Assembly (NCBI GenBank): GCA_037443265.1
Contig: JBBIOR010000002.1
Coordinates: 22,755-37,406, forward strand
Direction: 5' to 3'
From: Candidatus Fraserbacteria bacterium
GTDB lineage: Bacteria > Bipolaricaulota > Bipolaricaulia > RBG-16-55-9
DNA: 14,652 bases
The notes beneath the pieces are model-generated. The model was not told where the DNA came from, did not search any database, and worked only from the letters and a program-made list of their open reading frames with translations. Made by a program: the position numbers and the translations under genes. Below are positions 402 through 14,638 of the stretch, piece by piece; position 1 is the stretch's first letter; every line of letters begins with the position of its first letter.

Positions 402-1436
402 TTATTGAGAAGTCAATGCCAGTAGTGCACGCTTGACGTAGACGGCCGCCATGCGCTTCCTGTAGAAGAGATGATAGTCTGTGTTGTCCAGCGGGCGCAC
501 GGGCTGGAAGACCACTTGGGCCACGGCCTCAAGCACTTCGGGCGCAATCTTCTGCCCAATCAAGAGCTGCTCGGCTTGGGTCATCTGCAGGGGAGAAGAG
601 CCCACCCCGCCCAGCACGATCTTCGCATGCTCCACCCTTCCATCCGGTGCTTGTTTTAACGCCACGGCCACCCCCAGCACCGGGAAATCAAACGAGCCGC
701 GCCGACGCAGTTTCCAGTACGTGCTTTTGGCACCGTTGGCCGGGGGTATGTGAATTTCCGTAACCAGCTCATCGTGTTGCTTATTGAGATAGAACATGCC
801 ATCGTCACGATAGAGATCTCTTACGGGAATGAGGCGTTCACCATTGCGGCTGATGAGCTTCACTTTGGCATCGAGCGCGATGAGCATGGGTGCGCTGTCA
901 GTGGATGAGACGGCCCAGCAGCGTGGGCTGCCGGGGGCCACACGACAGGGGACTTCGTTTTTTTCAGGAGCCGACTCTGGTGCAAAGGGCCAGCCCTTGG
1001 GGCCGGGAGCTTTCATGCACCAGCCGAGGGCCGCGCGCCAATGGTGCGTCTGATCGTAATAATTGCAGCGGGTGTCCAGACACAAATTGCCACCGATGGT
1101 GCCCATGTTTCTCAAAATGGGTGTGGAGATGACCCCCGTAGCTGTTGCCAGGCCGGGATAGCTCTCTCGCACCATGGGATGATTGCTGACTTCGGTGAGC
1201 GAGGTGCCCGCCTTTATGACGAGACCAGAATGTGCGTTGCCCTGAATACCCTTTAGTTCGTTCAGATGGCGGAGCCCGATGAGGTATTTGGGCAGAAATT
1301 GCCGTCGTTTCATCTTGGGGTAGACGTCGGTGCCTCCGGCGACGGGCATGGCCTCTGGCCCATAGTCCGCGAGCATCTTCACGGCTTCGCTCAGCGACTT
1401 GGGCGCAAGATATTCGAATCTGGGCAGGCGTAGCAC
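402..1436 (-). CDS. FAD-binding medium subunit with [4Fe-4S] insertion, 4-hydroxybenzoyl-CoA reductase beta (HcrB/HbaD)-like
   Basis: AGGTD and RNMGTIGGNL FAD motifs, KLRRRGSFDF, and Cys motif C124-X15-C140-X23-C164-X8-C173 typical of the 4Fe-4S-carrying subfamily. GTG start with AGGAG RBS. Confidence 0.92.
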   Translation of the reverse strand: MLRLPRFEYLAPKSLSEAVKMLADYGPEAMPVAGGTDVYPKMKRRQFLPKYLIGLRHLNELKGIQGNAHSGLVIKAGTSLTEVSNHPMVRESYPGLATATGVISTPILRNMGTIGGNLCLDTRCNYYDQTHHWRAALGWCMKAPGPKGWPFAPESAPEKNEVPCRVAPGSPRCWAVSSTDSAPMLIALDAKVKLISRNGERLIPVRDLYRDDGMFYLNKQHDELVTEIHIPPANGAKSTYWKLRRRGSFDFPVLGVAVALKQAPDGRVEHAKIVLGGVGSSPLQMTQAEQLLIGQKIAPEVLEAVAQVVFQPVRPLDNTDYHLFYRKRMAAVYVKRALLALTSQ

Positions 1437-1451
1437 GAGTGTTTATCTCCT

Positions 1452-1682
1452 TTAGCTCTTCAACAAGCGTAGAAACTCGTCGCGTGAGATCTGCAAGTCG
1501 CGCATGATCTTTCGAAGAAGTCCAGGACCGATGTCTTGGCCTCCATGTATCGGGATGGGAATCGTCTTTTTGCCAGGCTTTGTGTAGTGTGCATGTCCAC
1601 CCCTGTGCCGAGCCTTATGATAGCCGAGCCGTTCCAGCACGCGGATTACCTCGCGCGCTTTCAACACCGGCAGGCGATTCAT
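1452..1682 (-). CDS. hicA: HicA-family mRNA interferase toxin
   Basis: 76 aa, basic; LP(V)LKAREVIRVLERLGY...RHRGGH...IPIHGGQDIGPGLLRKIMRD, the HicA pattern with catalytic His retained. 4-nt ATGA overlap with hicB. Confidence 0.92.
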   Translation of the reverse strand: MNRLPVLKAREVIRVLERLGYHKARHRGGHAHYTKPGKKTIPIPIHGGQDIGPGLLRKIMRDLQISRDEFLRLLKS

Positions 1683-1924
1683 ACTGTAATCTTGTGGATA
1701 CCGACAAATCGAACCTCAGGTTCATCTTCACCGTTTTCTTCCTCAAGGCAGAGTTGGATGACTTCCTTGATGTTCTTCATAAGTTCATCCAGAGTGCGGC
1801 CTTGAGTATAGCAAGCCTGTAGCTGAGGGACCTCACCAACATAAAAACCGTCCTCGTCTTGCTCAACGATAACGTAGAACTCTCGCTGCTTTCGCTTTTG
1901 GTCTACCTTTAGGGATTTAGGCAT
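1679..1924 (-). CDS. hicB: Short HicB-family antitoxin (partial RNase H fold only)
   Basis: FYVIVEQDEDGFYVGEVPQLQACYTQGRTLDELMKNIKEVIQLCLE is the HicB core. Start placed at ATG 1924 because GAGGTG lies 6 nt upstream; the ORF-track GTG at 1933 is inside that RBS. Confidence 0.9.
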   Translation of the reverse strand: MPKSLKVDQKRKQREFYVIVEQDEDGFYVGEVPQLQACYTQGRTLDELMKNIKEVIQLCLEEENGEDEPEVRFVGIHKITV

Positions 1925-1959
1925 ATAACTCACCTCATGTTATTCTACTCCGTCACATC

Positions 1960-4344
1960 TCAGTTGTCTTCCAAGCTTTTGGGCGGCTCGACCTTGATGG
2001 GATCGGGAAATTTATAGTCGGGAATCCCCTCCGGGCCAACACGCGCTAGCCTGCCCTTCGCTTTCTCTTCCAGAGCTTTCAGCACCTTCTCCGGCGTGAT
2101 CGGGATCTCATCCATTCTAATCCCCAGAGCGTTGTAAACGGCGTTGGCCACCGCTGGAATGACGGGATTAAGCGGCCCCTGGCCCGCTTCTTTGGCCCCA
2201 AAGGGTCCCCGCGGCTCGTCCGTCTCAACGAGAATCGACTCTACTTCTGGCATCTCTTTGAATGTCAAGCTCTTATAGTCGAGCAACGAAGGGCACTTGT
2301 GAAGATTTTTGCGAAAGATCTGCTCTTCCATCAGCGCTTCACCCAGGGCCATATAGACGCTCCCCTCGATCTGGCCCTCGACCAGCAGGGGATTGATCGC
2401 CCGCCCAATGTCATGCGCCAGCCAGATCTTCTCGACTCTCACAGCGCCCGTCTCTGAGTCGCAATCCACTTGGGCCACACAAGCGGAAAAGCTGTAGGCG
2501 GGCGAAGGACCCACACCTGAACCCTTGTAATTGCCCATCTTCTGAGGGGGCTTATAGCTGCCTACAGCCCCGATTAAGCCAAATCGAGCTTCCGCACTGC
2601 GTGCGGCCTCCGCAAAAGAGAGAGCCCGCTTGGGATCTTCTCTGTCGAAGATGCGCCGCTCTTTAGCGACTAAATTTTTGACCGGCACGCCCAGTCTCTC
2701 TGCCGCGGCCTTGAAGACGAGTTTGCGGGCTTTCATCGCAGCTTGATAGGCCGCGTTGCCCATCATCATCGTCACCCGACTGGAATAGCTTCCCAAATCA
2801 ATGGGCGTCAAGTCTGTGTCGGCCGTGACCAGCTTGATGTCTTGGGGGTAGAGCCCCAGCACCTCGGCAATGACCGTCGCCAGCACCGTGTCTGAGCCCT
2901 GGCCAATATCAATCGCACCGGAGAATGCTGTGACTGCACCCGTGCGGTCGATCTTGATTTGCACTTCCGAGTGGGGCATGTCATTCCAGTAGATGGGCAG
3001 TCCAGCCCCACAGATATATGTGCTGCAGGCAAAGCCTACTCCCTTTCCTGGAGGTAGTTTCTTGTATTTCTCCCTCCAGCCCGAGGCTTCGATCACTCTT
3101 TCAATGCATTTCTTGAGGCCGTTGCTGGTGATCTTGAGCCAGTTGACGGTGATGTGATTGGACCCCGTAAGATTTCTCAGGCGCAGCGTGATGGGATCTA
3201 TCTTCAAATCTTCGGCGAGCTTGTCCAGGTGAATCTCCAGGGCATAGCGCGGCTGGGGGGTGCCATGGCCCCGCTTGGGGCCGCAGGGTGGCTTATTAGT
3301 AAAAACCCGCATCCCCTGAAAGCGATACGCGGGAATCTTGTAAGTGACCGTCTGGAGCGCGCCGGTGTAATACGTGCTGGCGACCCCGTAGGAGCCGTAG
3401 GCCCCGCCGTCTAGAAAAGATTTGAAATGCATAGCTGTGATCTTCCCATTCTTCTTGACGCCCGTCTTCACCCACATCAGCACGGGATGGCGGCCTCGAT
3501 GGGCATAGAACACTTCCTCGCGGGTGAGCGTGATCTTGACAGGGTGCCCCGTCAAGAGGCTGAGCTTGGCTGCACAGATCTCGTGTGAGAAGGGATCGTC
3601 CTTTCCGCCGAAGCCTCCGCCTACGGGGGGAGCGACCACCCGAATCTTCTGCTCCGGCAATTGGAGCACTTTCGCCAAGGCGCGATGGACATAATGGGGC
3701 GTCTGGGTTGAACTCCAAAGAGTCAGCTTCTCTTCAGCGGGGTCCCAGTATGCCAAGGCCGAGTGCTGCTCCATGGGAAGATGCGTGTTGCCCTGATAGA
3801 AGAAGACGTCTTCGCGAATATGATCCGCCTCGGCAAAGCCCGCGTCTACCTCGCCGAACTCCAGAGAGACTAATTTGTGAATATTGCCCTCGGGGCCGTA
3901 GTCGTGGATGCGCGGCTCTTGGGTGTTGAGAGCTTCTTCAATGGACATGATGGGCTTAAGCGGCTCGTATTCGATGTGAATGAGTGCGAGGGCTTCTTCT
4001 GCGATTTCTTCATCGATGGCGGCCACGGCCGCCACAGGCTCGCCCACATAACGAACCTTCTCGACGGCCAGGGCCGTCTCGTCTTGGGAGACGGGCATGA
4101 TGCCGTACTTGATGGGCAGATCTCTTCCCGTGATGACGGCCAGCACTCCAGGCAAGCTTTCGGCTCTGCTGGTGTCGATGCGCTTGATGAGCGCATGGGG
4201 CTGCGTGCTGGGCAGGAGGCGTCCAAAGAGCATCCTTGGCAGATAAAGATCGTCGGCATATTTGGCGCGTCCGGTGACTTTGGCCCAGGCGTCCACACGG
4301 GCAAGGGGCTGGCCGATCACAGAGAATTCCTTCGTTTTGCTCAT
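1960..4344 (-). CDS. Molybdopterin-binding large subunit, xanthine dehydrogenase family, 4-hydroxybenzoyl-CoA reductase alpha (HcrA/HbaC)-like
   Basis: KVTGRAKYADD, STQ, GGGFGGK, PPCGPKRGHG, DIGQGS, DLGSYSSRVT, GQIEG, GPFGAKEAGQ. RGHG, GSYSSRVT and GAKEA are characteristic of the Hcr clade. 4-nt overlap with the small subunit gene. Confidence 0.93.
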   Translation of the reverse strand: MSKTKEFSVIGQPLARVDAWAKVTGRAKYADDLYLPRMLFGRLLPSTQPHALIKRIDTSRAESLPGVLAVITGRDLPIKYGIMPVSQDETALAVEKVRYVGEPVAAVAAIDEEIAEEALALIHIEYEPLKPIMSIEEALNTQEPRIHDYGPEGNIHKLVSLEFGEVDAGFAEADHIREDVFFYQGNTHLPMEQHSALAYWDPAEEKLTLWSSTQTPHYVHRALAKVLQLPEQKIRVVAPPVGGGFGGKDDPFSHEICAAKLSLLTGHPVKITLTREEVFYAHRGRHPVLMWVKTGVKKNGKITAMHFKSFLDGGAYGSYGVASTYYTGALQTVTYKIPAYRFQGMRVFTNKPPCGPKRGHGTPQPRYALEIHLDKLAEDLKIDPITLRLRNLTGSNHITVNWLKITSNGLKKCIERVIEASGWREKYKKLPPGKGVGFACSTYICGAGLPIYWNDMPHSEVQIKIDRTGAVTAFSGAIDIGQGSDTVLATVIAEVLGLYPQDIKLVTADTDLTPIDLGSYSSRVTMMMGNAAYQAAMKARKLVFKAAAERLGVPVKNLVAKERRIFDREDPKRALSFAEAARSAEARFGLIGAVGSYKPPQKMGNYKGSGVGPSPAYSFSACVAQVDCDSETGAVRVEKIWLAHDIGRAINPLLVEGQIEGSVYMALGEALMEEQIFRKNLHKCPSLLDYKSLTFKEMPEVESILVETDEPRGPFGAKEAGQGPLNPVIPAVANAVYNALGIRMDEIPITPEKVLKALEEKAKGRLARVGPEGIPDYKFPDPIKVEPPKSLEDN

Positions 4345-4826
4345 GGTGTTATTTTAGTAGAAGAGGGTCGCGCTGCCGCCAGCTCTACGGCTTCGATGAT
4401 TTTTAAATACCCCGTGCAACGGCAGAGATTGCCCGAAAGCGCTTCTTTGATCTCTTCGCGTGAGGGGCTTGGGTTTCTGTCAAGAAGAACTTGCGCTGCG
4501 ACTAGCATCCCCGGCGTGCAGTAGCCGCATTGGGCCGCTCCACGCTCAGCGAACGTGATTTGCAGGGGATGCAGCCGGCCATTCTGCTCTAAGCCCTCGA
4601 CGGTTGTGATCTCATGGCCCTGTGCTTCGATGGCCAGAGTTAAGCACGAGAGCACCAGCTCGCCGTCTATTAGAACGGTGCAGGTGCCGCACTCGCCCAG
4701 CTCGCAGCCATGCTTGGTGCCCGTCAGCTTGAGCTCCTCGCGCAACACCTCGAGGAGGGTCTTCTGAGCAGGCACGGCTAGTTCATAGCGCTCGCCGTTG
4801 ACACATAACTGGATGAGATGCTTCAT
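4341..4826 (-). CDS. 2x[2Fe-2S] small subunit (HcrC/CoxS/XdhC-type)
   Basis: GTKHGCELGECGTCTV...SC and QCGYCTPG...NLCRCTGY motifs. Confidence 0.96.
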   Translation of the reverse strand: MKHLIQLCVNGERYELAVPAQKTLLEVLREELKLTGTKHGCELGECGTCTVLIDGELVLSCLTLAIEAQGHEITTVEGLEQNGRLHPLQITFAERGAAQCGYCTPGMLVAAQVLLDRNPSPSREEIKEALSGNLCRCTGYLKIIEAVELAAARPSSTKITP

Positions 4827-4914: not shown

Positions 4915-5928
4915 ATGAGCAGGCCTTATGATCGCCAGATTCGCTTTGCCGGCATCGGCCAAAAGGGACAAGCAAAGCTTCAAAAAGCCCGCGTGGTCCT
5001 CGTCGGCTTAGGCGCCATCGGCTCCGTGCTCGCAGAAAGAATTACCCGAGCCGGCGTGGGATTTTTACGCCTCATCGATCGAGATTTCGTCGAGCCGGAG
5101 AATCTCCACAGCCAGGCGCTCTACGACGAGGAAGACGCAAAGCAGTGCCTTCCCAAGGCCATCGCCGCCGAGAGGAGATTGAGAGCGCTTAACTCCGAGG
5201 TGACCATCGAAGCCCTCGTAGTCGATCTCAACCCGGAGAACGCCGAAGAGTTACTGACAGATGCAGATCTCATCGCAGATGGCACGGATAATTTCGAGAC
5301 ACGCTTTCTCATCAACGACGTCTGCGTCAAGTCTCGCACGCCCTGGATCTATAGCTCAGCCGTGGAGAGCTATGGCACCACCATGACGATCCGTCCAGGC
5401 GAGACGCCCTGCTTGCGCTGCCTTTACCCCGAACTTCCCACGCCCGGCACCCTGCCCACCTGCGAGACGAGCGGCCTTTTGGGCAGCATCCCAAGTACCA
5501 TCGCCTCCATCGCCTCGGCTGAGGCCCTCAAGCTGCTCGTGGGAGGAGGCACGCCCAATCCCGGTCTACTGTACCTGGATCTCTGGGAGGGCCAATGGAA
5601 AGCCTTTCCGGTGAAACGGCGAATGGATTGCCCAACGTGCGCCTTGGGACGCTTCGAGTATCTGGACGCTCAAGGAGAGACCATGGCTGCCACGCTTTGC
5701 GGGCGAGATGCCGTCCAGCTTCGCTGCGCTCACTCCAAAGCGCTGGATCTGGTCGCGCTTGCCGCGCGCCTTCGCTCCGCAGGCGATGTCCGGCTGAACG
5801 AATATCTTTTGCAGTTCCGAGATGAGGGCATCGAGATCGTGCTCTTTGCCGATGGTCGGGCCATCATCAAAGGGGCGTCCAATGTGTCCACCGCCCGCCG
5901 CTGGTACGCCAAATACATTGGCCTATAG
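4915..5928 (+). CDS. MoeB/ThiF-family E1-like adenylyltransferase with C-terminal extension
   Basis: YDRQI, GLGAIG, IDRDFVE, DGTDNF, Zn pairs CLRC and CPTC, TCETSG Cys, C-terminal TLCGRDAVQ...FADGRAIIKG. Start moved to ATG 4915 because the longer ORF overlaps the divergent gene and the promoters. Confidence 0.92.
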   Translation: MSRPYDRQIRFAGIGQKGQAKLQKARVVLVGLGAIGSVLAERITRAGVGFLRLIDRDFVEPENLHSQALYDEEDAKQCLPKAIAAERRLRALNSEVTIEALVVDLNPENAEELLTDADLIADGTDNFETRFLINDVCVKSRTPWIYSSAVESYGTTMTIRPGETPCLRCLYPELPTPGTLPTCETSGLLGSIPSTIASIASAEALKLLVGGGTPNPGLLYLDLWEGQWKAFPVKRRMDCPTCALGRFEYLDAQGETMAATLCGRDAVQLRCAHSKALDLVALAARLRSAGDVRLNEYLLQFRDEGIEIVLFADGRAIIKGASNVSTARRWYAKYIGL

Positions 5929-5930
5929 AT

Positions 5931-6842
5931 TTAACGCTGCAAGGCGGCGCGCAGGGCAGGCTCTAGCTCGGGGAAGCGAAACGAATACCCAATCTCTTGA
6001 GCCCGCTGGGGCAGCACCCGCCGGCTGGAGAGCAACTCACCGGAGAATGCTCCCAACACCAGCTTGAGTGCGAAAGCCGGTGCCGGCAGAAACGCCGGAC
6101 GTTGCAAGACTCTTCCCAGAGTGCGGGCAAATTCTCTCTGTGGCAGGGGCTGCGGGGCCGTGGCATTCACAGGCCCGCTCAGATGGCTGTCCAGCAGCGC
6201 ATGCTCCATCAAGCCCACAACATCATCGCGATGGACCCAGGACCACCACTGACGGCCTGAGCCGAGCGGCCCTCCTAGACCCAGCTGGAAGAGCGGCTGC
6301 ATGGCAGACAGAGCGCCTCCGCCGGGGCCGAGCACGATCCCAATGCGCAACCTTACGACCCGCAAAGAAAGCTCCTCGGCTTTGAGGGCCTCTTCTTCCC
6401 ATGCACGACAGACTTGGGCTAGAAAATCCGAGCCCGGTGGAGATTCTTCCGTGAGCGCCTCATCATCGCGATGGCCGTAGTAGCCGATCGCGCTCGCAGA
6501 GATCAACACTTTGGGTGGAGTCTTAAGCTCCTTCATGGCTTCTACGAGATGGCGGGTGCCCAAGACGCGGCTGTCATGGATGAGCTGCTTCTTGGCAGGC
6601 GTCCAGCGGCCAGCCACTGTCTCGCCCGCCAAGTGAATTACGGCCTCCACGCCGTCAAACGCTTCCGCCGGAGGCAGAGATTGGATCGGAGCCCAGGGGA
6701 AGACTTGATCGACCATCGGCATCCGCTGCTTGGCTGAGGCAGGATCGCGGGAGAGCGCCACCAGCGTGTGCCCGGCTTCCTGGAGCGCTTGGCAGAGGCG
6801 CGTGCCGAGAAAGCCTGTGGCTCCGGTGACTAAGATTCTCAT
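5931..6842 (-). CDS. TIGR01777 / YfcH / SDR39U1-family atypical SDR oxidoreductase
   Basis: MRILVTGATGFLG, IHLAGE, SASAIGYYG, FLAQVCRAWE, LGGPLGSGRQWWSWVH, GPVNATAP, FRFPELEPAL. Start at ATG 6842, 2 nt after the upstream stop. Confidence 0.93.
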   Translation of the reverse strand: MRILVTGATGFLGTRLCQALQEAGHTLVALSRDPASAKQRMPMVDQVFPWAPIQSLPPAEAFDGVEAVIHLAGETVAGRWTPAKKQLIHDSRVLGTRHLVEAMKELKTPPKVLISASAIGYYGHRDDEALTEESPPGSDFLAQVCRAWEEEALKAEELSLRVVRLRIGIVLGPGGGALSAMQPLFQLGLGGPLGSGRQWWSWVHRDDVVGLMEHALLDSHLSGPVNATAPQPLPQREFARTLGRVLQRPAFLPAPAFALKLVLGAFSGELLSSRRVLPQRAQEIGYSFRFPELEPALRAALQR

Positions 6843-6844
6843 CT

Positions 6845-7681
6845 CTAGCCCTTGTAGCTGACGACGCGACCCCACAGGCTCTTCGTCCCCCAGATCCCTG
6901 AGCGCAAGCACTCCAATTGCACAATCTGACTGTGATCCACGAAGAGATTGACTTCCGGACCATAATTTTTAATATACCAGGCGAAGACCTCTGGATCGGA
7001 AGCCTCAAACATCACGCGCTCTAGCCCCAGCTCGCTCACAAATTGTGCGGGCACATCCGTCCGCCAGCTCTTGACGCTCTCCGTAATCCCTTCAGATTCG
7101 ACCATGATCATGTACGCTCCGGCCTCCAAGAAGCGCTTGGCTTGGGCGATGGCCCAGCCGACGTCGCGCATCCCTTCCGTTTCGAGCTCCTCGGCAGCGC
7201 TAGCACCTCCCGCTCCGAACTGAATGCCCACCTCCGGCTTGGCTTTGAGCCCAGCCTCTTGAACTTTCTCAACGATCCGGAGCCAATCGTCTGTGGGAAT
7301 TGTGATAAACCCGCTAGAGATCTCAATGATGTCGAAGCCCAGCTCTTTGCATTCTTTGATGTAGCGATCGACGGCCTCCGGGCCATAAGTCAAAACACGC
7401 TCGATGAAGCCGCCGGTTGAGACCAGCACCTCATGTCGATGACAGAGATCGATGAGATCTTTGATGGCCCGGCGGGGCATGAGGGCAAACGATCCGCCGG
7501 CAAATTTAAGCGCATCCACGTAAGTGCCCACCGTATCGAGAATGTCTTCAAGATAGTGCACGCCCATGGGCGTATAATATGGGCCTCGGATCTCTGTAAT
7601 TCCGCGCGTGCGCGGCTTGGCCTGCCTTTCGTTTAGCTTAAGAAAAGAGAACGCCCTTTCATGGCCTTGAGATTTCGCCAT
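6845..7681 (-). CDS. Phosphosulfolactate synthase (ComA)-fold TIM-barrel protein, HSA32-like subfamily; function unknown
   Basis: KPRTRGITEIRGPYY, VDALKFAGGS, VSTGG, ECKELGFDIIEIS, LEAGA, LGLERVMFEA, YGPEVNLFVDHSQIVQLECLR. AAGGAG RBS. Confidence 0.88.
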   Translation of the reverse strand: MAKSQGHERAFSFLKLNERQAKPRTRGITEIRGPYYTPMGVHYLEDILDTVGTYVDALKFAGGSFALMPRRAIKDLIDLCHRHEVLVSTGGFIERVLTYGPEAVDRYIKECKELGFDIIEISSGFITIPTDDWLRIVEKVQEAGLKAKPEVGIQFGAGGASAAEELETEGMRDVGWAIAQAKRFLEAGAYMIMVESEGITESVKSWRTDVPAQFVSELGLERVMFEASDPEVFAWYIKNYGPEVNLFVDHSQIVQLECLRSGIWGTKSLWGRVVSYKG

Positions 7682-7687
7682 CGCGCA

Positions 7688-9073
7688 TCACTCCTTTTCG
7701 TTGGCTTCCGGTACCTGCACTTTCGCCAGCAGGAGTGTCAGATCCTTTGCGGAAATCTCTTCAAGATGCTCGACGGCCTCGATGATCTTCCGACGGAGCG
7801 AGACCGTCGTGTACGACCGGCTCAAGCGCTCGAATTTTTCGATCACGGTCTGCCAACGCATCGGACGCGTGTGGAAGCCTTCATAATCGCACTTCTCTGC
7901 CGTGAGCTTGCGGCCGTCTTTGAGCGTTACCGTGAGGCGACAGGGCATCTCGGCTGGAAAGCGTCGACTGTACTCCTCAGAAGGGCGTACGACGACTCTG
8001 CGAAGCAGCGTCTGCACGTCTTGACGCTGGATGCGCTCCCGCTCATACTGCTCGGGCATGACTTGATTGTCTAGAAGCGCCACAGCGATCATATAGGGCA
8101 AGCTGTGATCGGCTTCTTCTTTGGTGCGCACGATCGTCTTGTCTCCTTCCTCGCCTCCGCCGATGATGTGATACGCCACATCAAAGATCTCAATCTCAAT
8201 ACTCTTTACATCATCAGCCCTAAAGCCATGCTGTTGCTTCAGCTCTAAAATGCCCTCGATGGCCGACTGAGAGTGAATCTCTGCGTTGTACTTTTTGATG
8301 ATCGTGCGCGTCACCCTTTCTAAGTCTTCTTTGGACCAGTCGAGCTCGAATCTTCCGGCGATAGAGTCCATGAAGCCCTTGTTGCCCTCAAAGACTTCCA
8401 AGGGCCCTGTAATGCCGCGCCGAGCCAGAAACGCCGCATGAGTGCCGCCGAAGGCCGTGTTGGGATACGCTAAGCCTTTCCAGTGGGAGAGCGCTCCGGT
8501 TCGAGTGACCCTAAGCGCGTTAAAGGCCGTCCCGCTGATGGCTAGGGCGTTGGCCGTCTGCTCCGCATTTAAGTTGAGAGCTTTGGCCACGCCCGCGGCC
8601 ACGGCATACGAACCCTGCGTGGTGTGATCAAAGCCCTTGGCCCGCACCGGGGCGACGTCGCTCAGCCGACACTGCACTTGATAGGCCACCGCCAGCGCCG
8701 TAAGAAAATCTCGCCCGTTGCGATCCGCGTATTCGGCCGCAGCCAGCACGGCCCCTAAATTATCGCTGGGATGGCACGTCTCGCCCTGGGCCAAATAGCT
8801 ATCGTTGAAGTCGAGATAGCGCACCAGAGCGCTGTTGTAGAACGCCGCTCGATCCGGCGCAGATCTTCCGCCGCCGATGAGAGTACAGTGCCCTGCTCCT
8901 CCAAAATCTCGAAGGTGCTTGCGAATCATGCGCATGGGCTCGCCTGCGATGGCTCCAATGGCGCAGCCTAAGGCATCCAGCACGCGAATCTTAAGCTGCT
9001 CGCAGGCCTGGCGAGAAAGATCGTCCAAAGAGGCTCGAACGACGAACTCGGCCAGCTGCTCTACCAGGGCCAT
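7688..9073 (-). CDS. MmgE/PrpD-family protein (2-methylcitrate dehydratase-like)
   Basis: LDALGCAIGA, RYLDFNDSY, CHPSDN, DHTT, RTGALSHWKG, KKYNAEIHSQ, EEADHSLPY. Confidence 0.92.
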   Translation of the reverse strand: MALVEQLAEFVVRASLDDLSRQACEQLKIRVLDALGCAIGAIAGEPMRMIRKHLRDFGGAGHCTLIGGGRSAPDRAAFYNSALVRYLDFNDSYLAQGETCHPSDNLGAVLAAAEYADRNGRDFLTALAVAYQVQCRLSDVAPVRAKGFDHTTQGSYAVAAGVAKALNLNAEQTANALAISGTAFNALRVTRTGALSHWKGLAYPNTAFGGTHAAFLARRGITGPLEVFEGNKGFMDSIAGRFELDWSKEDLERVTRTIIKKYNAEIHSQSAIEGILELKQQHGFRADDVKSIEIEIFDVAYHIIGGGEEGDKTIVRTKEEADHSLPYMIAVALLDNQVMPEQYERERIQRQDVQTLLRRVVVRPSEEYSRRFPAEMPCRLTVTLKDGRKLTAEKCDYEGFHTRPMRWQTVIEKFERLSRSYTTVSLRRKIIEAVEHLEEISAKDLTLLLAKVQVPEANEKE

Positions 9074-9077
9074 AGTT

Positions 9078-9581
9078 TCAATCCTCGTCTTCGGGCTTGC
9101 GCTCGCCCAGCTCCCTGTCCAGCAAGAGCAGCGCCCCGGGGTGATCTTTGATCAGCTCCAGCTTAGAGACCACTTCGCTCGTGCTCTTCTCTTCTTCCAC
9201 CTGTTCCTCGATGAACCACTGCAGCATCACTTCCGTGGGGTAATCGTCCTCGTCGTCGGCGAGATCGTAGAGCTTGTGTATTAAGCCCGTGATGTGCTTC
9301 TCGTGGGCCAGGGCCTTCTGGAAGGCGTCCAGCGGCGATTTGTATTGAGAAGGCGGCTGCGGGATCGCCTGAAGCTCCACTCGACCGCCTCGGTCGATGA
9401 CGAAATTAAAAATCTTCATGGCATGCTCCAGCTCCTCTTGGCGCTGAAGCCGCATCCAGTGGGCAAAGCCCTTTAGATTTTCCGCCTCAAAGTGAGCTAC
9501 CATCGACAGATAAAGATAGGCCGAATAGAGCTCGTGCTTGATCTGCTCGTTGAGCGCGTCTTGAAGCTTCCTGCTCAGCAT
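9078..9581 (-). CDS. ftn: Non-heme prokaryotic ferritin
   Basis: LNEQIKHELYSAYLYLSM, EELEHAMK, HEKHIT, LQWFIEEQVEEE ferroxidase ligands. AAGGAG RBS. Confidence 0.96.
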   Translation of the reverse strand: MLSRKLQDALNEQIKHELYSAYLYLSMVAHFEAENLKGFAHWMRLQRQEELEHAMKIFNFVIDRGGRVELQAIPQPPSQYKSPLDAFQKALAHEKHITGLIHKLYDLADDEDDYPTEVMLQWFIEEQVEEEKSTSEVVSKLELIKDHPGALLLLDRELGERKPEDED

Positions 9582-9609
9582 CTCTGCTCCTTTCTCATGA
9601 GTTGAAGGG

Positions 9610-10842
9610 CTATGTGCCGAATTTCTCTAGCCAGTTGTTGTAGCCAGCCAAAAGGGGCACGACGTTGCCCGAGATCCGCCCTAAGCCCCCCTGCATTACA
9701 CTCTTCTCATCGAAGGAGACCACATCGTCGGGGAGGACGTTCGGGCCGGCGATCACCAGAGGCACCGGCTCTGCCGTGTGATCCCCATAGACAATGGGCG
9801 TGCAGTGATCCCCTGTGAACGCCAGATGCGTCTTGTCCCCATCGAGGTTTTCTAATAAAAAGCCCATGGCCTCGTCGATCTTCTCGATGAAGGCGATCTT
9901 GGCCAGCGCATCTCTATCATGGCCGGCGGAGTCTGGGCCCTTGATGTGCACAAACACGAAATCTTTCTGTTGGAGTTCTTGCACTGCGAGCTTCATCTTA
10001 TTCATCACGTTGGAATCGAGCCGGCCCGTGGCCCCTTCAGCCCGCTTGAACTCTAAGCCGGCGAGTCTTCCAATCCCAATGTAGAGCGCCCCGGCGGCGA
10101 TGACGCTGCCTGTGATGCCGTAAAGCTCCGTCACCCTGCGCAAGTGGGGCACGGTGGAGGCACCACGCACCAGAAGAATATTGGCCGGGGGGTTCCCCTG
10201 ACGCTCGCGCCTTTTGTTGAGCGGGAGATCTTTCAAGATCTCGTAGGACTGACGGGTCAACTCGTTGACGAGCTGGGCCGTGCGCTCGGCCTGCGGCGTC
10301 TTCTCCCGGGGCCGAACTTCTAAGACTCTCTGGCCCACAGCGTGCGGATCGGCCTCGGTGATGGCCGGCGAAAGACCTTCGCCGCGCAGCACCAGCGCCC
10401 CGCGATGTTCCGTGCTCGCTTTGAAAAGCACTTTCACATCCGGAGCGGATTTGGGCCTAAGCCCTTGAAGCGCGCGCTCCAGTTCCTCTTGACCCTCGTC
10501 AAGCCGCCCCGCCCGGCGATCTTGGATCAAAAAATCTTCGTCGACCGTGGCGAAGTTCGTCCGGAAGCAGATGTCTCCCTCTTGTACCTCTAGGCCGAGG
10601 CCCACCGCTTCAAAGACCCCCCGGCCGGGATACTCTCGAAAGGGATCATAGCCGAAGATCGACAGATGAGCCGTATCACTGCCGGGGCGCACGCCCGGCT
10701 TGATGGGATCTAAAAGCCCATTGATCCCGCGTCGCGCCAGCTCATCCAGATGGGGCTTTCGGGCCGCCTGAAGACACGTCTTGCCCTGCCAGTCTGTGGG
10801 CCGCCCCCCTAGACCATCGGCAATGACCAGAATCCCTTTCAT
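9610..10842 (-). CDS. apgM: Archaeal-type 2,3-bisphosphoglycerate-independent phosphoglycerate mutase
   Basis: DGLG, PGSDTAHLSIFGYDP (catalytic Ser), YPGRG, DRRAGR, HIKGPDSAGHD, TGDHCTP, HTAEPVP. ATG 10842 overlaps the gdh stop (TGATG). Confidence 0.9.
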   Translation of the reverse strand: MKGILVIADGLGGRPTDWQGKTCLQAARKPHLDELARRGINGLLDPIKPGVRPGSDTAHLSIFGYDPFREYPGRGVFEAVGLGLEVQEGDICFRTNFATVDEDFLIQDRRAGRLDEGQEELERALQGLRPKSAPDVKVLFKASTEHRGALVLRGEGLSPAITEADPHAVGQRVLEVRPREKTPQAERTAQLVNELTRQSYEILKDLPLNKRRERQGNPPANILLVRGASTVPHLRRVTELYGITGSVIAAGALYIGIGRLAGLEFKRAEGATGRLDSNVMNKMKLAVQELQQKDFVFVHIKGPDSAGHDRDALAKIAFIEKIDEAMGFLLENLDGDKTHLAFTGDHCTPIVYGDHTAEPVPLVIAGPNVLPDDVVSFDEKSVMQGGLGRISGNVVPLLAGYNNWLEKFGT

Positions 10843-12188
10843 CAAGCGTAGAGGCCGCGGGCGCGTGCCGCTGTGGCGACCCGATCCACGGCCACCATGT
10901 AAGCTGCCGTGCGCATGTCGATCCGCTCACGCTCCGCCGTCTCCCACACCCGCCGAAACGCCCGCCGCATGAAATTCTCTAGATGGCGATCGACTTCCTC
11001 CGCGCTCCAGAACCAGAACGAGCGATCCTGCACCCATTCAAAATAACTGACCGTCACACCCCCGGCGTTGGCCAAAATATCGGGCACGACGAAGATGCCG
11101 CGCTCGTAGAGGATGCGATCGGCCTTAAGCGTCGTCGGGCCGTTGGCCAGCTCAATCACCACTTTCGCTTGGAGGCGATCCGCGTTCTCTTCTGTGATTT
11201 GATCCTCAATGGCCGCCGGCACCAGCACGTCGACGCCCAACTCCAGAAGCTCCTCGTTCGTGATGGGCTCGGCACAAGGATAGCCGCGAACGGTCTTCGT
11301 CTGCCGGACGTGCTCCCTAAGATGAAGCGGATCGATGCCCTCCGGGTTGTACAGTCCGCCGTAGACGTCGCTTACGGCCACGATCTTGGCTCCGGCCTCG
11401 TGGCAGAAGCGGGCCATGTGCGCACCCACGTTGCCGAAGCCCTGGATGGCCATGGTCGCCCCTTTAAGCTCCCGATGGAGATGCTTGAGCGTCTCCTGGG
11501 CGATGAAGAACCCGCCCCGACCCGTTGCGCCGTCTCGCCCCTCGGAGCCTCCCAGCACCTTGGGTTTTCCAGTGACCAGCCCCGGCATGAACTGGCCCTC
11601 GTGATGCATGCTGATCGTGTCTACCATCCAGGCCATCTCCCGCTCGGTGGTATAGACATCCGGAGCCGGGATGTCCACATCGGGGCCGATCATAAATGAT
11701 ATTTCAGCCGCATAGCGGCGGGTAATGCGCTCTAGCTCCCCCAGGGAAAGCCTTGAGGGATCGCATTTGACGCCGCCTTTGGCCCCTCCAAAGGGCAGAC
11801 CCGCCACAGCGCACTTCCAGGTCATCAAAATGGCCAGACCCTCGACTTCTTCGAGGGTGACATCGGGGTGATAACGAATGCCGCCTTTGGTCGGCCCTAA
11901 GACGGGATGGTGCTGGACGCGATAGCCCTCAAAGTGCCTCAGGCGGCCGTCGTCTAGGAGCACGGGGAAGACGACCGTGAGTTTGCGCTTGGGATAGCGC
12001 AAAAGCTCGCGGACTGGCTCTTCGAGTTTTAGGCGCTCGGCGGCCGCATCGTAGAAATGACGCGCCAGCTCCAGCATCTTGATCTCGGAGCTTCGGCGAA
12101 TCTCGGAGCGATTGGGACTCTGCGCATTCATGTTCTGCCGCGTATCGCCACTGGATGTCGTTACCCGCAAGGAGGCCTGAGGTTCCAT
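10842..12188 (-). CDS. gdhA: NAD(P)-dependent glutamate dehydrogenase (Glu/Leu/Phe/Val dehydrogenase family); start uncertain (12188, 12131 or 12077)
   Basis: GPTKGGIRY, MTWKCA, GGAKGG, DIPAPDVYT, VTGKP, GFGNVG, ANGPTT, NAGGVTVSYFEWVQ. Glutamate-specificity Lys and Ser are retained. Confidence 0.92.
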   Translation of the reverse strand: MEPQASLRVTTSSGDTRQNMNAQSPNRSEIRRSSEIKMLELARHFYDAAAERLKLEEPVRELLRYPKRKLTVVFPVLLDDGRLRHFEGYRVQHHPVLGPTKGGIRYHPDVTLEEVEGLAILMTWKCAVAGLPFGGAKGGVKCDPSRLSLGELERITRRYAAEISFMIGPDVDIPAPDVYTTEREMAWMVDTISMHHEGQFMPGLVTGKPKVLGGSEGRDGATGRGGFFIAQETLKHLHRELKGATMAIQGFGNVGAHMARFCHEAGAKIVAVSDVYGGLYNPEGIDPLHLREHVRQTKTVRGYPCAEPITNEELLELGVDVLVPAAIEDQITEENADRLQAKVVIELANGPTTLKADRILYERGIFVVPDILANAGGVTVSYFEWVQDRSFWFWSAEEVDRHLENFMRRAFRRVWETAERERIDMRTAAYMVAVDRVATAARARGLYA

Positions 12189-12191
12189 GAG

Positions 12192-12821
12192 CTATTTGGT
12201 TGTTCGCTGTGCCCTTTCAAAGCGTTGTGCGACGTCTGTCCAGTTGACCACATTCCACCAGGCGTTGACGTAGTCCGCGCGCCTGTTTTGGTACTTCAAA
12301 TAGTAGGCGTGCTCCCAGACGTCCAGGCCCAAAAGGGGGATGAATCCTTCCGTCCGTGGACTCGTTTGATTGGGCATCGTCTTGATTTGAAGCTTCTTAA
12401 GGAGCGGGTTGAAGACCAACCAAGCCCAGCCACTGCCCTGCACGCCTGCGGCGGATTTCGAGAACTGTTCCTTGAAGGCCGCGAAGCTCCCAAAGGTGTG
12501 CTGAAGGGTGGTGGCCAGTTCTCCTTTGGGCTCGCCTCCGGCCTTGGGCGCCATGTTCTGCCAGAAGATGGCGTGGTTTTCGTAGCCCCCGCCGTGGAAG
12601 TTGACCGCGCCCCGAATCTCCTCGGGAATCGTGCTGATCTTCGACAGCAGCTCTTCAATGGGCTTGGACGAAAGATCGGGGTATCTCTCCAAAGCCGCGT
12701 TCAGGCCATCGGTGTAGGCCTGATGGTGCTTATCGTGGTGGAGGCGCATCGTCTGCTCATCGATGTGAGGCTCCAACGCCTTGTAGTCATAAGGCAGAGG
12801 TGGAAGCTCAAATTTGGGCAT
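12192..12821 (-). CDS. sodA: Fe/Mn superoxide dismutase, Mn-type signature
   Basis: LPPLPYDYKALEP, MRLHHDKHHQAY, GGGYENHAIFW, GSGWAWL, PNQ, DVWEHAYY. Met, GGG and the late Gln indicate Mn specificity. AAGGAG RBS. Confidence 0.95.
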   Translation of the reverse strand: MPKFELPPLPYDYKALEPHIDEQTMRLHHDKHHQAYTDGLNAALERYPDLSSKPIEELLSKISTIPEEIRGAVNFHGGGYENHAIFWQNMAPKAGGEPKGELATTLQHTFGSFAAFKEQFSKSAAGVQGSGWAWLVFNPLLKKLQIKTMPNQTSPRTEGFIPLLGLDVWEHAYYLKYQNRRADYVNAWWNVVNWTDVAQRFERAQRTTK

Positions 12822-12862
12822 GCTCTCACTCCTTTACGGGATTATTGCTCGATTCTATTTGC

Positions 12863-12891
12863 ATCTTAGCCCCCAAGGGAGTGCCTTTCAA
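12863..12891 (-). promoter_or_regulatory. Sigma70-type promoter for the sod-led operon
   Basis: TTGAAA (12891-12886), 17 nt, TAAGAT (12868-12863), followed by an AT-rich leader and AAGGAG. Confidence 0.65.
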
Positions 12892-12914
12892 GTGTTGTGA
12901 CCGCGGAATAGGCT

Positions 12915-13784
12915 TTAAATGGCTGTCAGTTCGTGATAGGCGGCCTGGAGCAGGCGGCGATGGAATTTCGGGCTGAGGAAGCTCGTAGAGTTGAATCGTT
13001 TGTCGAAGGGAACCGAAGAGAGAATCTCGGCTTCACCGGCCCCTGAACGGATGAGGGCGCGGACCATCTGAAAGAGCTCGCGACAGTACGCACGGAGCTT
13101 CTCGAAGGTCAGACGCCCATAGTGGGCCTCATGGCCGGGTACGTAGATTTCTACTTCCAGCGGAGCTACGTAGTCTAGGAGCTGCAAGAGGCGCAAGAAG
13201 CGCCCTTCGACTCCCTCACGGAAGTAGAAGGCGTCGCCTAAGAAGAGCACGCGCTCATAGGGCAGATAGACTCCGATGCTGTCGTCGCTGTGGGCTCCGC
13301 CCAGGGGGAAGAGCCTGACGGTCGTTCCCTTCAGATCCAGAACCAGCTCGCCCTCAAAGCTCAGGGAGGGAGGCACAAGTCTTAGGCCCTGAAAGTCCGC
13401 CGGGTTGAGCGTCGAGATATGGGAAAACATCGCCTCGTGGAGCCAGCGGTGGACGCGCTGAGGAGCCCAGTCCTCTTGAAGATTTTGAGAGAAACGCTCG
13501 CGGCAGCGGCGGCTGGCGATGACCGGGGCATCAAACGCCTGGTTGCCAAAGACATGATCGAAGTGCCGATGGGTGTCTATCACATAGAGCACGGGTCGCT
13601 CACGGATCTCTTGCATGGCCTCGTAGACGCGACGGCCGTGAGCCGGGGAGTTCCCACCGTCAATGGCAACCCAACCCTGATCGGTGAGCACCATGCCGAT
13701 GGCTGGCTCCAGACGCTGCCAATCGTGCCGGTAGATCCAGACGTGATCCGAGAGTTGGTGTACCCGCGAGCCTGTGCACCTCAT
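12915..13784 (-). CDS. Metallo-beta-lactamase-fold hydrolase, substrate unknown
   Basis: VAIDGG, THRHFDHVFGN (HxHxDH), AHSDD, LFLGD, VPGH. ATG 13784 with AAGGGA upstream and downstream of the predicted promoter. Confidence 0.88.
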   Translation of the reverse strand: MRCTGSRVHQLSDHVWIYRHDWQRLEPAIGMVLTDQGWVAIDGGNSPAHGRRVYEAMQEIRERPVLYVIDTHRHFDHVFGNQAFDAPVIASRRCRERFSQNLQEDWAPQRVHRWLHEAMFSHISTLNPADFQGLRLVPPSLSFEGELVLDLKGTTVRLFPLGGAHSDDSIGVYLPYERVLFLGDAFYFREGVEGRFLRLLQLLDYVAPLEVEIYVPGHEAHYGRLTFEKLRAYCRELFQMVRALIRSGAGEAEILSSVPFDKRFNSTSFLSPKFHRRLLQAAYHELTAI

Positions 13785-13870: not shown

Positions 13871-14638
13871 CTATCCCTGCCCTCTATTAGATGGGGAAAG
13901 CCGCTGCAGGACCGGCTTATATCCCCGCCAGCTCACCCAGCCCAAGGGCAGCAGAATGAGAGGAGCTGCCCAGAAGAGCACACGCCACCACAACGAGCCA
14001 TAGGGTGGGATAAAGCGCAGACCCTCCCAGGACCGAGAGGATGAACCGCTGCCTGTGCCACTGACGCTTTGGGTTTGGCCCTCTATTGAGAAGCGTTGGG
14101 GCTGGCTTAAGTCACCGTGCGCGTAGGTGTAAAGGTGATAACCGAATGCAGCGGGTATGAGTAAGAGGAGCGTGATCAATGCCAGTAAAAGCATTGGATA
14201 AGCTCCTCTCAGGCTGATTCTTTTAACTAAGCCTAGGCCCCAGGCGATGCTCAGAACTGCTCCTAAGATGATGGCTAGGAGCAGGCCCATCTGCCATTCG
14301 TTAGCGAGGCGCTCTTGAGTTGCTTTCATGTTTTCCACTAGAGCAGTGTATTCATCAGGGATGTTAACCGAACTGTACTGTGCCTGCATGAAGGATATAT
14401 CGTTCGCACTCAGGCGGAGGAACGTAGCCATCTGGTCTTCAATGCTGAGATAAATCTGATGTACTACCAGATAGGAGATGGATATCAAATAGAGTAACGC
14501 TGAGAACAACAAAGCGGATCTGAAGTCGATGAGTTGCGCTGGCTTGCTTGAGGAGGAGACCGCAAGGGAGTTGAATAGAAATCGAATTAGGAGCGCAAAG
14601 AGAACCAAACCAAGAATAGCTATAACGGCATACCCCAT
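13871..14638 (-). CDS. Hypothetical multi-pass membrane protein (may extend beyond the right edge)
   Basis: About 5 hydrophobic segments and a Ser/Gly-rich linker (SVSGTGSGSSSRS). No in-frame stop between 14638 and the window end, so the start is unconfirmed. Confidence 0.7.
   Translation of the reverse strand: MGYAVIAILGLVLFALLIRFLFNSLAVSSSSKPAQLIDFRSALLFSALLYLISISYLVVHQIYLSIEDQMATFLRLSANDISFMQAQYSSVNIPDEYTALVENMKATQERLANEWQMGLLLAIILGAVLSIAWGLGLVKRISLRGAYPMLLLALITLLLLIPAAFGYHLYTYAHGDLSQPQRFSIEGQTQSVSGTGSGSSSRSWEGLRFIPPYGSLWWRVLFWAAPLILLPLGWVSWRGYKPVLQRLSPSNRGQG

Follow-up and report, generated by a model that had tools for sequence, protein, structure and literature searches.

Two adjacent genes on the minus strand of a 14,652-nt stretch of a Candidatus Fraserbacteria bacterium contig (JBBIOR010000002.1; this whole stretch is referred to as the window) encode an MmgE/PrpD-family protein and a ComA-family protein. 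Together they constitute a coupled, mobile two-gene unit, and its members are not the canonical enzymes of their families. The database names carried by such proteins, coenzyme M (CoM)-biosynthesis enzyme and methylcitrate dehydratase, are wrong for the pair. The families are known, but the subfamily pair has no assigned reaction. Each protein has more than 8000 database relatives, and the pair is widespread in bacteria and archaea. We infer that the two proteins would catalyze consecutive enolate-type steps on one small, probably C4-dicarboxylate-like acid. On balance, a coupled metabolic module is the probable reading, with sulfite as its leading, unproven nucleophile. A search of open-access papers and bioRxiv found no paper describing the pair; a SAR11 paper mentions phosphosulfolactate synthase and PrpD in separate gene islands and describes no pairing. 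The elements of the pair are as follows:

7688..9073, minus strand: first gene of the pair, MmgE/PrpD family, uncharacterised subfamily (461 aa; Pfam MmgE_PrpD_N and MmgE_PrpD_C)
7682..7687, minus strand: intergenic spacer of 6 nt from the TGA stop of the PrpD-like gene to the ATG of the ComA-like gene, read from the sequence
6845..7681, minus strand: second gene of the pair, a ComA-family (PF02679) TIM-barrel gene of the GPYY, putatively HSA32-like, subfamily (278 aa; Pfam)

A coupled gene pair across phyla and plasmids

To survey the linkage between the two genes, one genome of each species was scanned with an alignment of 22 ComA-like relatives (A1). A ComA-like relative is encoded in at least 585 stretches; the best 80 (loci numbered with an L below) were taken with 8-kb flanks and searched by tblastn with all window proteins, and open reading frame (ORF) calling in these loci was crude. 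In 67 of the 80 loci, the gene directly upstream of the ComA-like one is PrpD-like (62–78% identical, at more than 50% coverage), on the same strand in 66 of them and divergent in L063. In three further loci (L019, L042, and L071), the 3' end of a PrpD-like gene was found at the contig edge. Three others (L004, L010, and L046) have less than 220 nt upstream and were not judgeable, which brings the linkage to 70 of 77 testable loci in at least 10 phyla. The 80 loci comprise 32 from Chloroflexota, 13 from Acidobacteriota, 9 from Thermodesulfobacteriota, 8 from Planctomycetota, 3 from Nitrospirota, and 2 from Myxococcota, along with one from each of five more phyla and 8 without a phylum assignment. 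The estimated spacer in the 66 same-strand loci has a median of 24 nt, with 9 overlaps, 32 gaps of 0–30 nt, and 4 gaps above 300 nt.

The pair also resides on plasmids. A tblastn search of 72,556 plasmids with the ComA-like protein retrieved 26 close records, and the coordinates of this and of a second tblastn search place the two genes within 8 kb of each other in 23 of them. They are adjacent in 15 records; in 8 records from Haladaptataceae they lie on the same strand, 0.7–7.2 kb apart, with genes inserted between them; and in the remaining 3 the genes are far apart or the PrpD-like gene is absent. Annotated plasmids carrying the pair include Haloferax mediterranei pHM300, Methylosinus trichosporium OB3b pOB3b2, and Salinibacter ruber pSR116; Thermogemmatispora aurantia and Ktedonospora formicarum are other named carriers. 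Because the pair is present in cultured organisms, the question of its function is directly testable. On the OB3b plasmid, transposases of the IS5, IS6, and IS66 families stand on both sides of the pair in a cassette-like arrangement (L082:3343-10496). Given these flanking insertion sequences and plasmid records that include haloarchaea, the module occurs in both Archaea and Bacteria and looks mobile. The earlier note on this DNA had staked its reading beforehand on conservation of the linkage in other genomes, and the linkage is kept in 70 of the 77 testable loci and, for plasmids, in 23 of the 26 records.

Natural fusions provide a second line of evidence for coupling. A search for longer proteins identified 8 full-length proteins of 746–808 aa that combine PrpD_N, PrpD_C, and ComA domains, as well as 3 partial ones. 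Pfam analysis of 5 of the 8 returned the order PrpD then ComA in all 5. The fusions are 55–74% identical to the first of them, P0241, with a mean column identity of 67%; their linkers vary in length and sequence, and every core residue is kept. As the sequences have diverged in this way, the fusions are real rather than single sequencing errors. No fusion protein occurs in the 80 loci. Furthermore, in the 60 loci where both genes are intact, the pairwise distances of one protein correlate with those of the other (Mantel r 0.64), a value reached by 0 of 2000 permutations. Conserved adjacency across distant taxa and fused forms, the patterns by which operon and Rosetta-stone arguments recognize coupling, were thus both found. 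Median identity between phyla was nearly equal to that within phyla, at 78% versus 80% for the ComA-like protein and 67% versus 68% for the PrpD-like protein, figures biased upward by the selection of the best 80 loci. This near-equality fits strong constraint, horizontal spread, or both. Complex prediction for the two separate proteins gave ipSAE values of 0.00 and 0.00, which have no bearing either way, and an AlphaFold2 model of the fusion P0241 from an 8-row alignment (mean pLDDT 72.3, pTM 0.59) was too weak to define a domain interface.

The pair stands apart from both textbook pathways. The earlier note had described the window as lacking prpB, prpC, and acnD of the methylcitrate cycle and comB–E of CoM biosynthesis, and this was borne out: none was found among the 13 window ORFs with Pfam and NCBIfam, and tblastn of the window with E. 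coli PrpB and PrpC, Legionella ComB, and Xanthobacter XcbA/C/D/E gave no match. When the 80 loci were added to the window, PrpB, ComB, XcbA/C/D/E, and PrpF were found by tblastn in 0 of 81 sources. The proposal of a module outside both pathways therefore stands for the two genes, on the strength of the linkage, the fusions, and the lack of prpB, comB, and xcbCDE near the pair in these 81 sources.

Non-canonical members of known families

The ComA-like protein matches PF02679 over its full length (284.1 bits; residues 17–265 on profile positions 1–242 of 243) and fails the archaeal ComA equivalog arch_ComA (TIGR03849) in NCBIfam, with 98.5 bits against a cut-off of 280. The same cut-off was passed by 0 of the 22 nearest full-length representatives, which are 35–63% identical to the window protein and score 35–160 bits. 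M. jannaschii ComA (1QWG) was matched at an E value of 6.6e-15. Identity to the validated XcbB of Xanthobacter autotrophicus, whose activity on sulfite and phosphoenolpyruvate (PEP) is documented in PMC9457059, is 27–28% for the window protein, within an overall range of 24–30%. In the plasmid search, the 26 records lie at 56–68% identity, followed by a sharp fall to at most 29% for CoM-type enzymes.

Residue conservation was compared in an alignment of the window protein, four clade members, XcbB, a Legionella ComA adjoining ComB, and a distant Bradyrhizobium protein. R24, D56, K59, G90-G91, E120, S122, E150, E195, E226, R260, and R272 are invariant with the canonical enzymes. The GPYY motif (G33 P34 Y35 Y36) is invariant in the 22 relatives and not present in the canonical ComA proteins aligned. 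Together with the sub-cut-off score, it upholds the description in the earlier note of a non-canonical ComA of the GPYY type. Other clade-specific motifs invariant in the 22 relatives are TEIRGPYY, in which GPYY is embedded, W206-R207-T208, and D249-H250-S251-Q252. The canonical EVG(K/R)K becomes EVGIQ in the clade (I153-Q154 in the window protein), and Q154 is invariant in the 22 relatives. These patterns suggest that the catalytic core is retained and the anion-binding site has been remodelled. With ComA and XcbB (EC 4.4.1.19; 1QWG), the clade therefore has in common one Pfam family over the full length and the invariant core residues; unlike them, it carries EVGIQ, an insert of about 11 residues, motifs of its own, and a sub-cut-off score, and its genomic partner encodes a PrpD-family protein, with neither ComB nor XcbCDE nearby in the 81 sources.

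The PrpD-like protein presents a similar picture. It matches MmgE_PrpD_N (254.9 bits) and MmgE_PrpD_C (165.7 bits) in Pfam and falls below every PrpD equivalog cut-off in NCBIfam (163.8 versus 950, 150.8 versus 575, and 118.5 versus 458 bits). Identity to E. coli PrpD is 27% for the window protein, within an overall range of 24–31%, and the best solved relative is the B. subtilis 2-methylcitrate dehydratase 5MUX (E 1.9e-26). In PMC6789909, residues D93, H103, K207, and K272 of hCAD are described as strictly conserved among cis-aconitate decarboxylase (CAD), IDS epimerase, and methylcitrate dehydratase, and H159 as also conserved, but shifted by one residue in methylcitrate dehydratase. In our alignments, D93, H103, H159, K207, and K272 correspond to D88, H101, H150, K199, and K260 of the window protein, all of which are invariant in 22 PrpD-like relatives. 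Its NAEIH motif is closer to the dehydratase PAEFH than to the CAD sequence. According to PMC12290011, the characterised MmgE/PrpD members all use a C4 1,4-dicarboxylate backbone via an enolate, most homologues are uncharacterised, and the family is reported absent from plants. The protein thus resembles PrpD (EC 4.2.1.79), cis-aconitate decarboxylase, IDS epimerase, and methylsuccinate isomerase in its two-domain architecture and five active-site residues; it differs from them in failing all PrpD equivalogs and in lacking prpB nearby in the 81 sources.

HSA32, a heat-memory protein of plants, may belong to the same subfamily as the ComA-like half. In the ESM Atlas, the cluster closest to the window protein, a lead only, is 62% Eukaryota with Streptophyta commonest (score 0.98), and fungal ComA-domain proteins are 43–60% identical to the window protein; the relation was checked indirectly, through this cluster and the fungal members. 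HSA32 likewise has a ComA-family TIM barrel. It differs in standing alone, plants being reported to lack MmgE/PrpD (PMC12290011), and in a known role that is genetic, via HSP101, and not enzymatic. A 2024 preprint (bioRxiv 10.1101/2024.10.15.618377) calls its molecular function unclear, with the stabilisation of HSP101 as the known role. The pair could help explain HSA32 and, if the two proteins do catalyze a two-step reaction on a stress metabolite as proposed below, would be the first biochemical handle on it. In Aspergillus, Penicillium, and other fungi (P0253-P0307), the ComA domain is annotated N-terminally in proteins of about 860–1120 aa that also bear Zn2Cys6 and fungal transcription-factor domains; these could be real fusions or merged gene models.

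A more distant relative of the arrangement occurs on Bradyrhizobium guangxiense plasmid p53363 (L087:5367-8795), and seven Bradyrhizobium plasmid records share the match. This operon encodes an MmgE/PrpD-family protein, a PrpF-domain protein, and a distant ComA-family protein, and adjoins genes for an IclR regulator and for TctC, a binding protein of tripartite tricarboxylate transporters. It resembles the window pair in placing a ComA-family gene in an operon with an MmgE/PrpD-family gene. It differs in that both of its proteins are of other subfamilies (identities of 23% and 28%), its ComA keeps the R-K dyad, and it has an extra PrpF gene and a transporter binding protein; it looks catabolic. 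As its subfamilies are distant from those of the pair, the two families have been linked more than once.

Proposed chemistry and competing explanations

In the proposed chemistry, both enzymes would act via a carboxylate-stabilised enolate. The PrpD-like enzyme would bind an acid whose backbone resembles a C4 1,4-dicarboxylate, with a sulfonate able to take the place of one carboxylate, and would make or use a C=C bond by elimination of water or phosphate, or would epimerise the adduct. The ComA-like barrel would add a small nucleophile across that C=C bond, or remove it, and by family precedent sulfite would be the likeliest nucleophile. The two steps would be consecutive on one metabolite and could run in either direction, as synthesis or breakdown. 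Malate and phosphomalate have sulfonate analogues in sulfolactate and phosphosulfolactate. Bacterial phosphosulfolactate is handled by a fumarase-superfamily lyase, as stated in PMC9457059. No third constant gene was found beside the pair in the 80 loci, so its substrates and products should be common metabolites, which suits the scavenging of sulfite or a reactive acid, or the production of a protective solute, more than it suits a dedicated pathway of many steps.

Neighbouring genes in the related loci touch on this chemistry; their frequencies are raw counts without a background comparison, and the flanking genes were scanned with Pfam as one ORF per side of the pair (149 ORFs). Among sulfur-related genes, a sulfurtransferase lies between the two genes in Halorussus halophilus, two DsrE genes lie near the pair in Salinibacter, cysK is nearby in Haloferax and L013, and a rhodanese and an APS kinase occur among the flanking ORFs. 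Genes of tricarboxylic acid (TCA) cycle type include SdhB-like genes (35–48% identical) within 8 kb in 7 of the 80 loci (L008, L010, L013, L015, L023, L044, and L052) and succinate dehydrogenase/fumarate reductase genes on two plasmids, one of them archaeal (OB3b, L082:10750-12425; Haladaptatus, L085:12912-13766); of the 6 plasmid contexts of HSA32 type that were looked at, 2 have SdhB-like genes. A citrate-synthase-family gene occurs in 3 of the 81 sources (L015, L046, and L052), with an SdhB-like gene alongside in L015 and L052 and none in the window. Aconitase (L075), a fumarase-class lyase, and malate dehydrogenase directly flank the pair in one locus each. The succinate dehydrogenase and citrate-synthase-family neighbours are hints of C4-dicarboxylate metabolism. 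Additionally, Pyr_redox_2 flavoproteins occur in 11 loci, haloacid dehalogenase (HAD) hydrolases in 7, and a LysR regulator in 9, Ktedonobacteria throughout; LysR, IclR, and GntR regulators adjoin the pair. Iron- and oxidative-stress genes recur anecdotally, with Dps in Salinibacter and Dyp peroxidase, MsrB, and Nramp-Usp elsewhere.

Several points weigh against a sulfite-using module. The substrate is a guess. The K/R-K dyad after EVG is kept in XcbB and in the Legionella, Bradyrhizobium, and M. jannaschii ComA proteins but replaced in the clade, where an insert of about 11 residues follows EVGIQ; binding of PEP or sulfite may therefore be lost. As the basic dyad of the validated sulfolactate synthases is gone, the substrate may not be PEP plus sulfite. 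The sulfur-related neighbours are few and scattered, again as counts without background comparison, and those of TCA type equal or exceed them in frequency, pointing to common di- or tricarboxylates and away from sulfonates. A water-based or other non-sulfonate chemistry thus stays in play, given the loss of the basic dyad and the neighbours of TCA type. The coupling itself also has exceptions. No PrpD-like gene was found upstream, despite sufficient room, in 7 loci (L002, L031, L034, L035, L045, L049, and L077), and the report in PMC12290011 that plants lack MmgE/PrpD implies that the ComA-like half can work alone. Finally, the survey took the 80 top-scoring loci out of at least 585 matches, and its counts therefore hold only for the close subfamily.

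A more specific proposal, which we advance tentatively, is that the HSA32-type ComA and its PrpD-like partner carry out a two-step reaction outside any pathway map that makes or destroys a small stress-related metabolite, such as a C4 or C6 acid in sulfonated or re-hydrated form. In a sharper version, the pair would bypass aconitase-type steps without Fe-S chemistry when the cell is under oxidative or iron stress. A distinct alternative is a pair of Fe-S-independent hydro-lyases that work on citrate, aconitate, or a related TCA acid; the PrpD-like protein would dehydrate and the ComA-like protein re-hydrate, backing up Fe-S aconitase-type enzymes that fail under oxidative or iron stress. We consider this explanation unlikely, although it draws on several observations. 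One NCBIfam PrpD model is named 'bifunctional 2-methylcitrate dehydratase/aconitate hydratase', the loss of the basic dyad fits a changed nucleophile or substrate, and the TCA genes enumerated above (SdhB-like and citrate-synthase-family genes, aconitase, fumarase-class lyase, and malate dehydrogenase) lie near the pair. The ferritin and superoxide dismutase (SOD) genes of the window, Salinibacter Dps, the Dyp peroxidase, MsrB, and Nramp-Usp genes, and the iron- and oxidative-stress neighbours of a Caballeronia PrpD-like gene are of the kind that such a role would lead one to expect. However, no hydratase activity is known in PF02679, and the neighbours are heterogeneous, were chosen after the fact, and lack a background control. 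None of the 80 loci has a homologue of the window ferritin or SOD next to the pair, and an ordinary aconitase adjoins it in L075.

The explanation implied by the database names, '2-methylcitrate dehydratase' and 'phosphosulfolactate synthase', is that both proteins have only these canonical activities, that the other pathway genes lie elsewhere, and that the adjacency is meaningless. The full-length matches to both Pfam families agree with it, but it is very improbable. The scores fall far under all equivalog cut-offs, with 0 of 22 representatives reaching that of ComA; identities are 24–31% to E. coli PrpD and 24–30% to XcbB; and the identity gap from 56–68% to at most 29% sets the clade apart from CoM-type enzymes. 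None of the 81 sources has PrpB, ComB, XcbA/C/D/E, or PrpF. The adjacency seen in 70 of 77 loci and the natural fusions are hard to account for without coupling. The least probable alternative, that the ComA-like protein is a non-enzymatic stress protein acting through protein contacts, as proposed for plant HSA32 with HSP101, with the PrpD-like protein as its client or partner, would suit the unclear molecular function and HSP101-stabilising role given for HSA32 in bioRxiv 10.1101/2024.10.15.618377, the very high conservation (median 78% between phyla) typical of partner-constrained proteins, and the stress genes near some loci, but the residues in common with validated sulfolactate synthases and the PrpD-like catalytic set are all invariant, and the adjoining LysR, IclR, and GntR regulators suggest small-molecule metabolism.

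The window and other neighbouring genes

Two further genes border the pair closely in the window:

5931..6842, minus strand: TIGR01777 short-chain dehydrogenase/reductase (SDR), with its ATG at 6842, 2 nt past the TAG stop of the ComA-like gene (NCBIfam 347.6 bits, cut-off 207)
9078..9581, minus strand: ferritin gene, 4 nt upstream of the PrpD-like gene (Pfam Ferritin 157.8 bits)

The layout given in the earlier note, a 6-nt gap followed after 2 nt by the TIGR01777 SDR, agrees with the ORF coordinates and with our reading of the sequence. Membership of the SDR in the module is not supported, as none of the 80 loci has a homologue next to the pair. The same count, 0 of 80, holds for homologues of the ferritin, apgM, glutamate dehydrogenase (GDH), SOD, and MBL genes, and homologues of the molybdoenzyme large subunit, the Fe-S subunit, and ThiF were each found in 1 locus (3 loci of 80). 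The SDR, ferritin, apgM, GDH, SOD, MBL, and molybdoenzyme genes were accordingly rejected as conserved partners by the 80-locus survey.

In the window itself, genes for an Fe/Mn SOD, GDH, an archaeal-type cofactor-independent phosphoglycerate mutase (apgM), and ferritin (9078-12821, minus strand) run head-to-tail into the pair. The whole co-directional string, namely SOD, GDH, apgM, ferritin, PrpD-like, ComA-like, and SDR, has successive gaps of 3, about -4, 28, 4, 6, and 2 nt. A promoter and terminator scan of 5600-13000 placed a single promoter-like site, at 12891-12863, ahead of the SOD gene and found no terminator and no convincing internal promoter in the gene string; its counts were not above those of shuffles (5 versus 2.0±1.4 and 8 versus 5.8±2.5). 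Elsewhere in the window, 13871-14638 (minus strand) encodes a predicted membrane protein of 255 aa without a Pfam or NCBIfam match. The region 402-4826 (minus strand) encodes a three-subunit molybdoenzyme of the xanthine-dehydrogenase family, with FAD, Mo, and 2Fe-2S subunits. Its best matches are the alpha, beta, and gamma subunits of 4-hydroxybenzoyl-CoA reductase, all below the equivalog cut-offs (880/995, 255/405, and 198/258 bits), and its 344-aa FAD subunit contains a Cys-rich insert.

Some genes recur near the pair elsewhere. DUF488 lies within 8 kb in 26 of the 80 loci, co-directionally in 22, within 1.5 kb in 16, and in at least 4 phyla; examples are L013:8530-8859, L036:8843-9169, and L018:5570-5899, and the OB3b plasmid also carries one (L082:13015-13383). 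The best Pfam match of these proteins is the 'inactive DUF488-N3 subclade', and the open-access and bioRxiv literature on DUF488 gave no function. Three loci of Thermodesulfobacteriota type (L018, L022, and L028) have the order DUF488, HAD hydrolase, PrpD-like, ComA-like; the window has no DUF488 gene. GTP cyclohydrolase I is near the ComA-like gene in 14 loci from Chloroflexota and Acidobacteriota (L012, L017, L026, L027, L038-L042, L045, L065, and L072-L074), and directly downstream of it in 10 of these. This association extends to other genes of pterin biosynthesis, with HPPK nearby in 6 loci and pterin-4a-carbinolamine dehydratase in L017.

A solo PrpD-like gene (46.5% identical) is found on a Caballeronia plasmid (L090:3943-10734) whose replicon lacks a ComA-like gene. 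It is located among two ferritin-like genes, a hemerythrin gene, a manganese catalase gene, and CinA, followed by a phosphatidylserine-decarboxylase-family gene, and this setting resembles a stress island.

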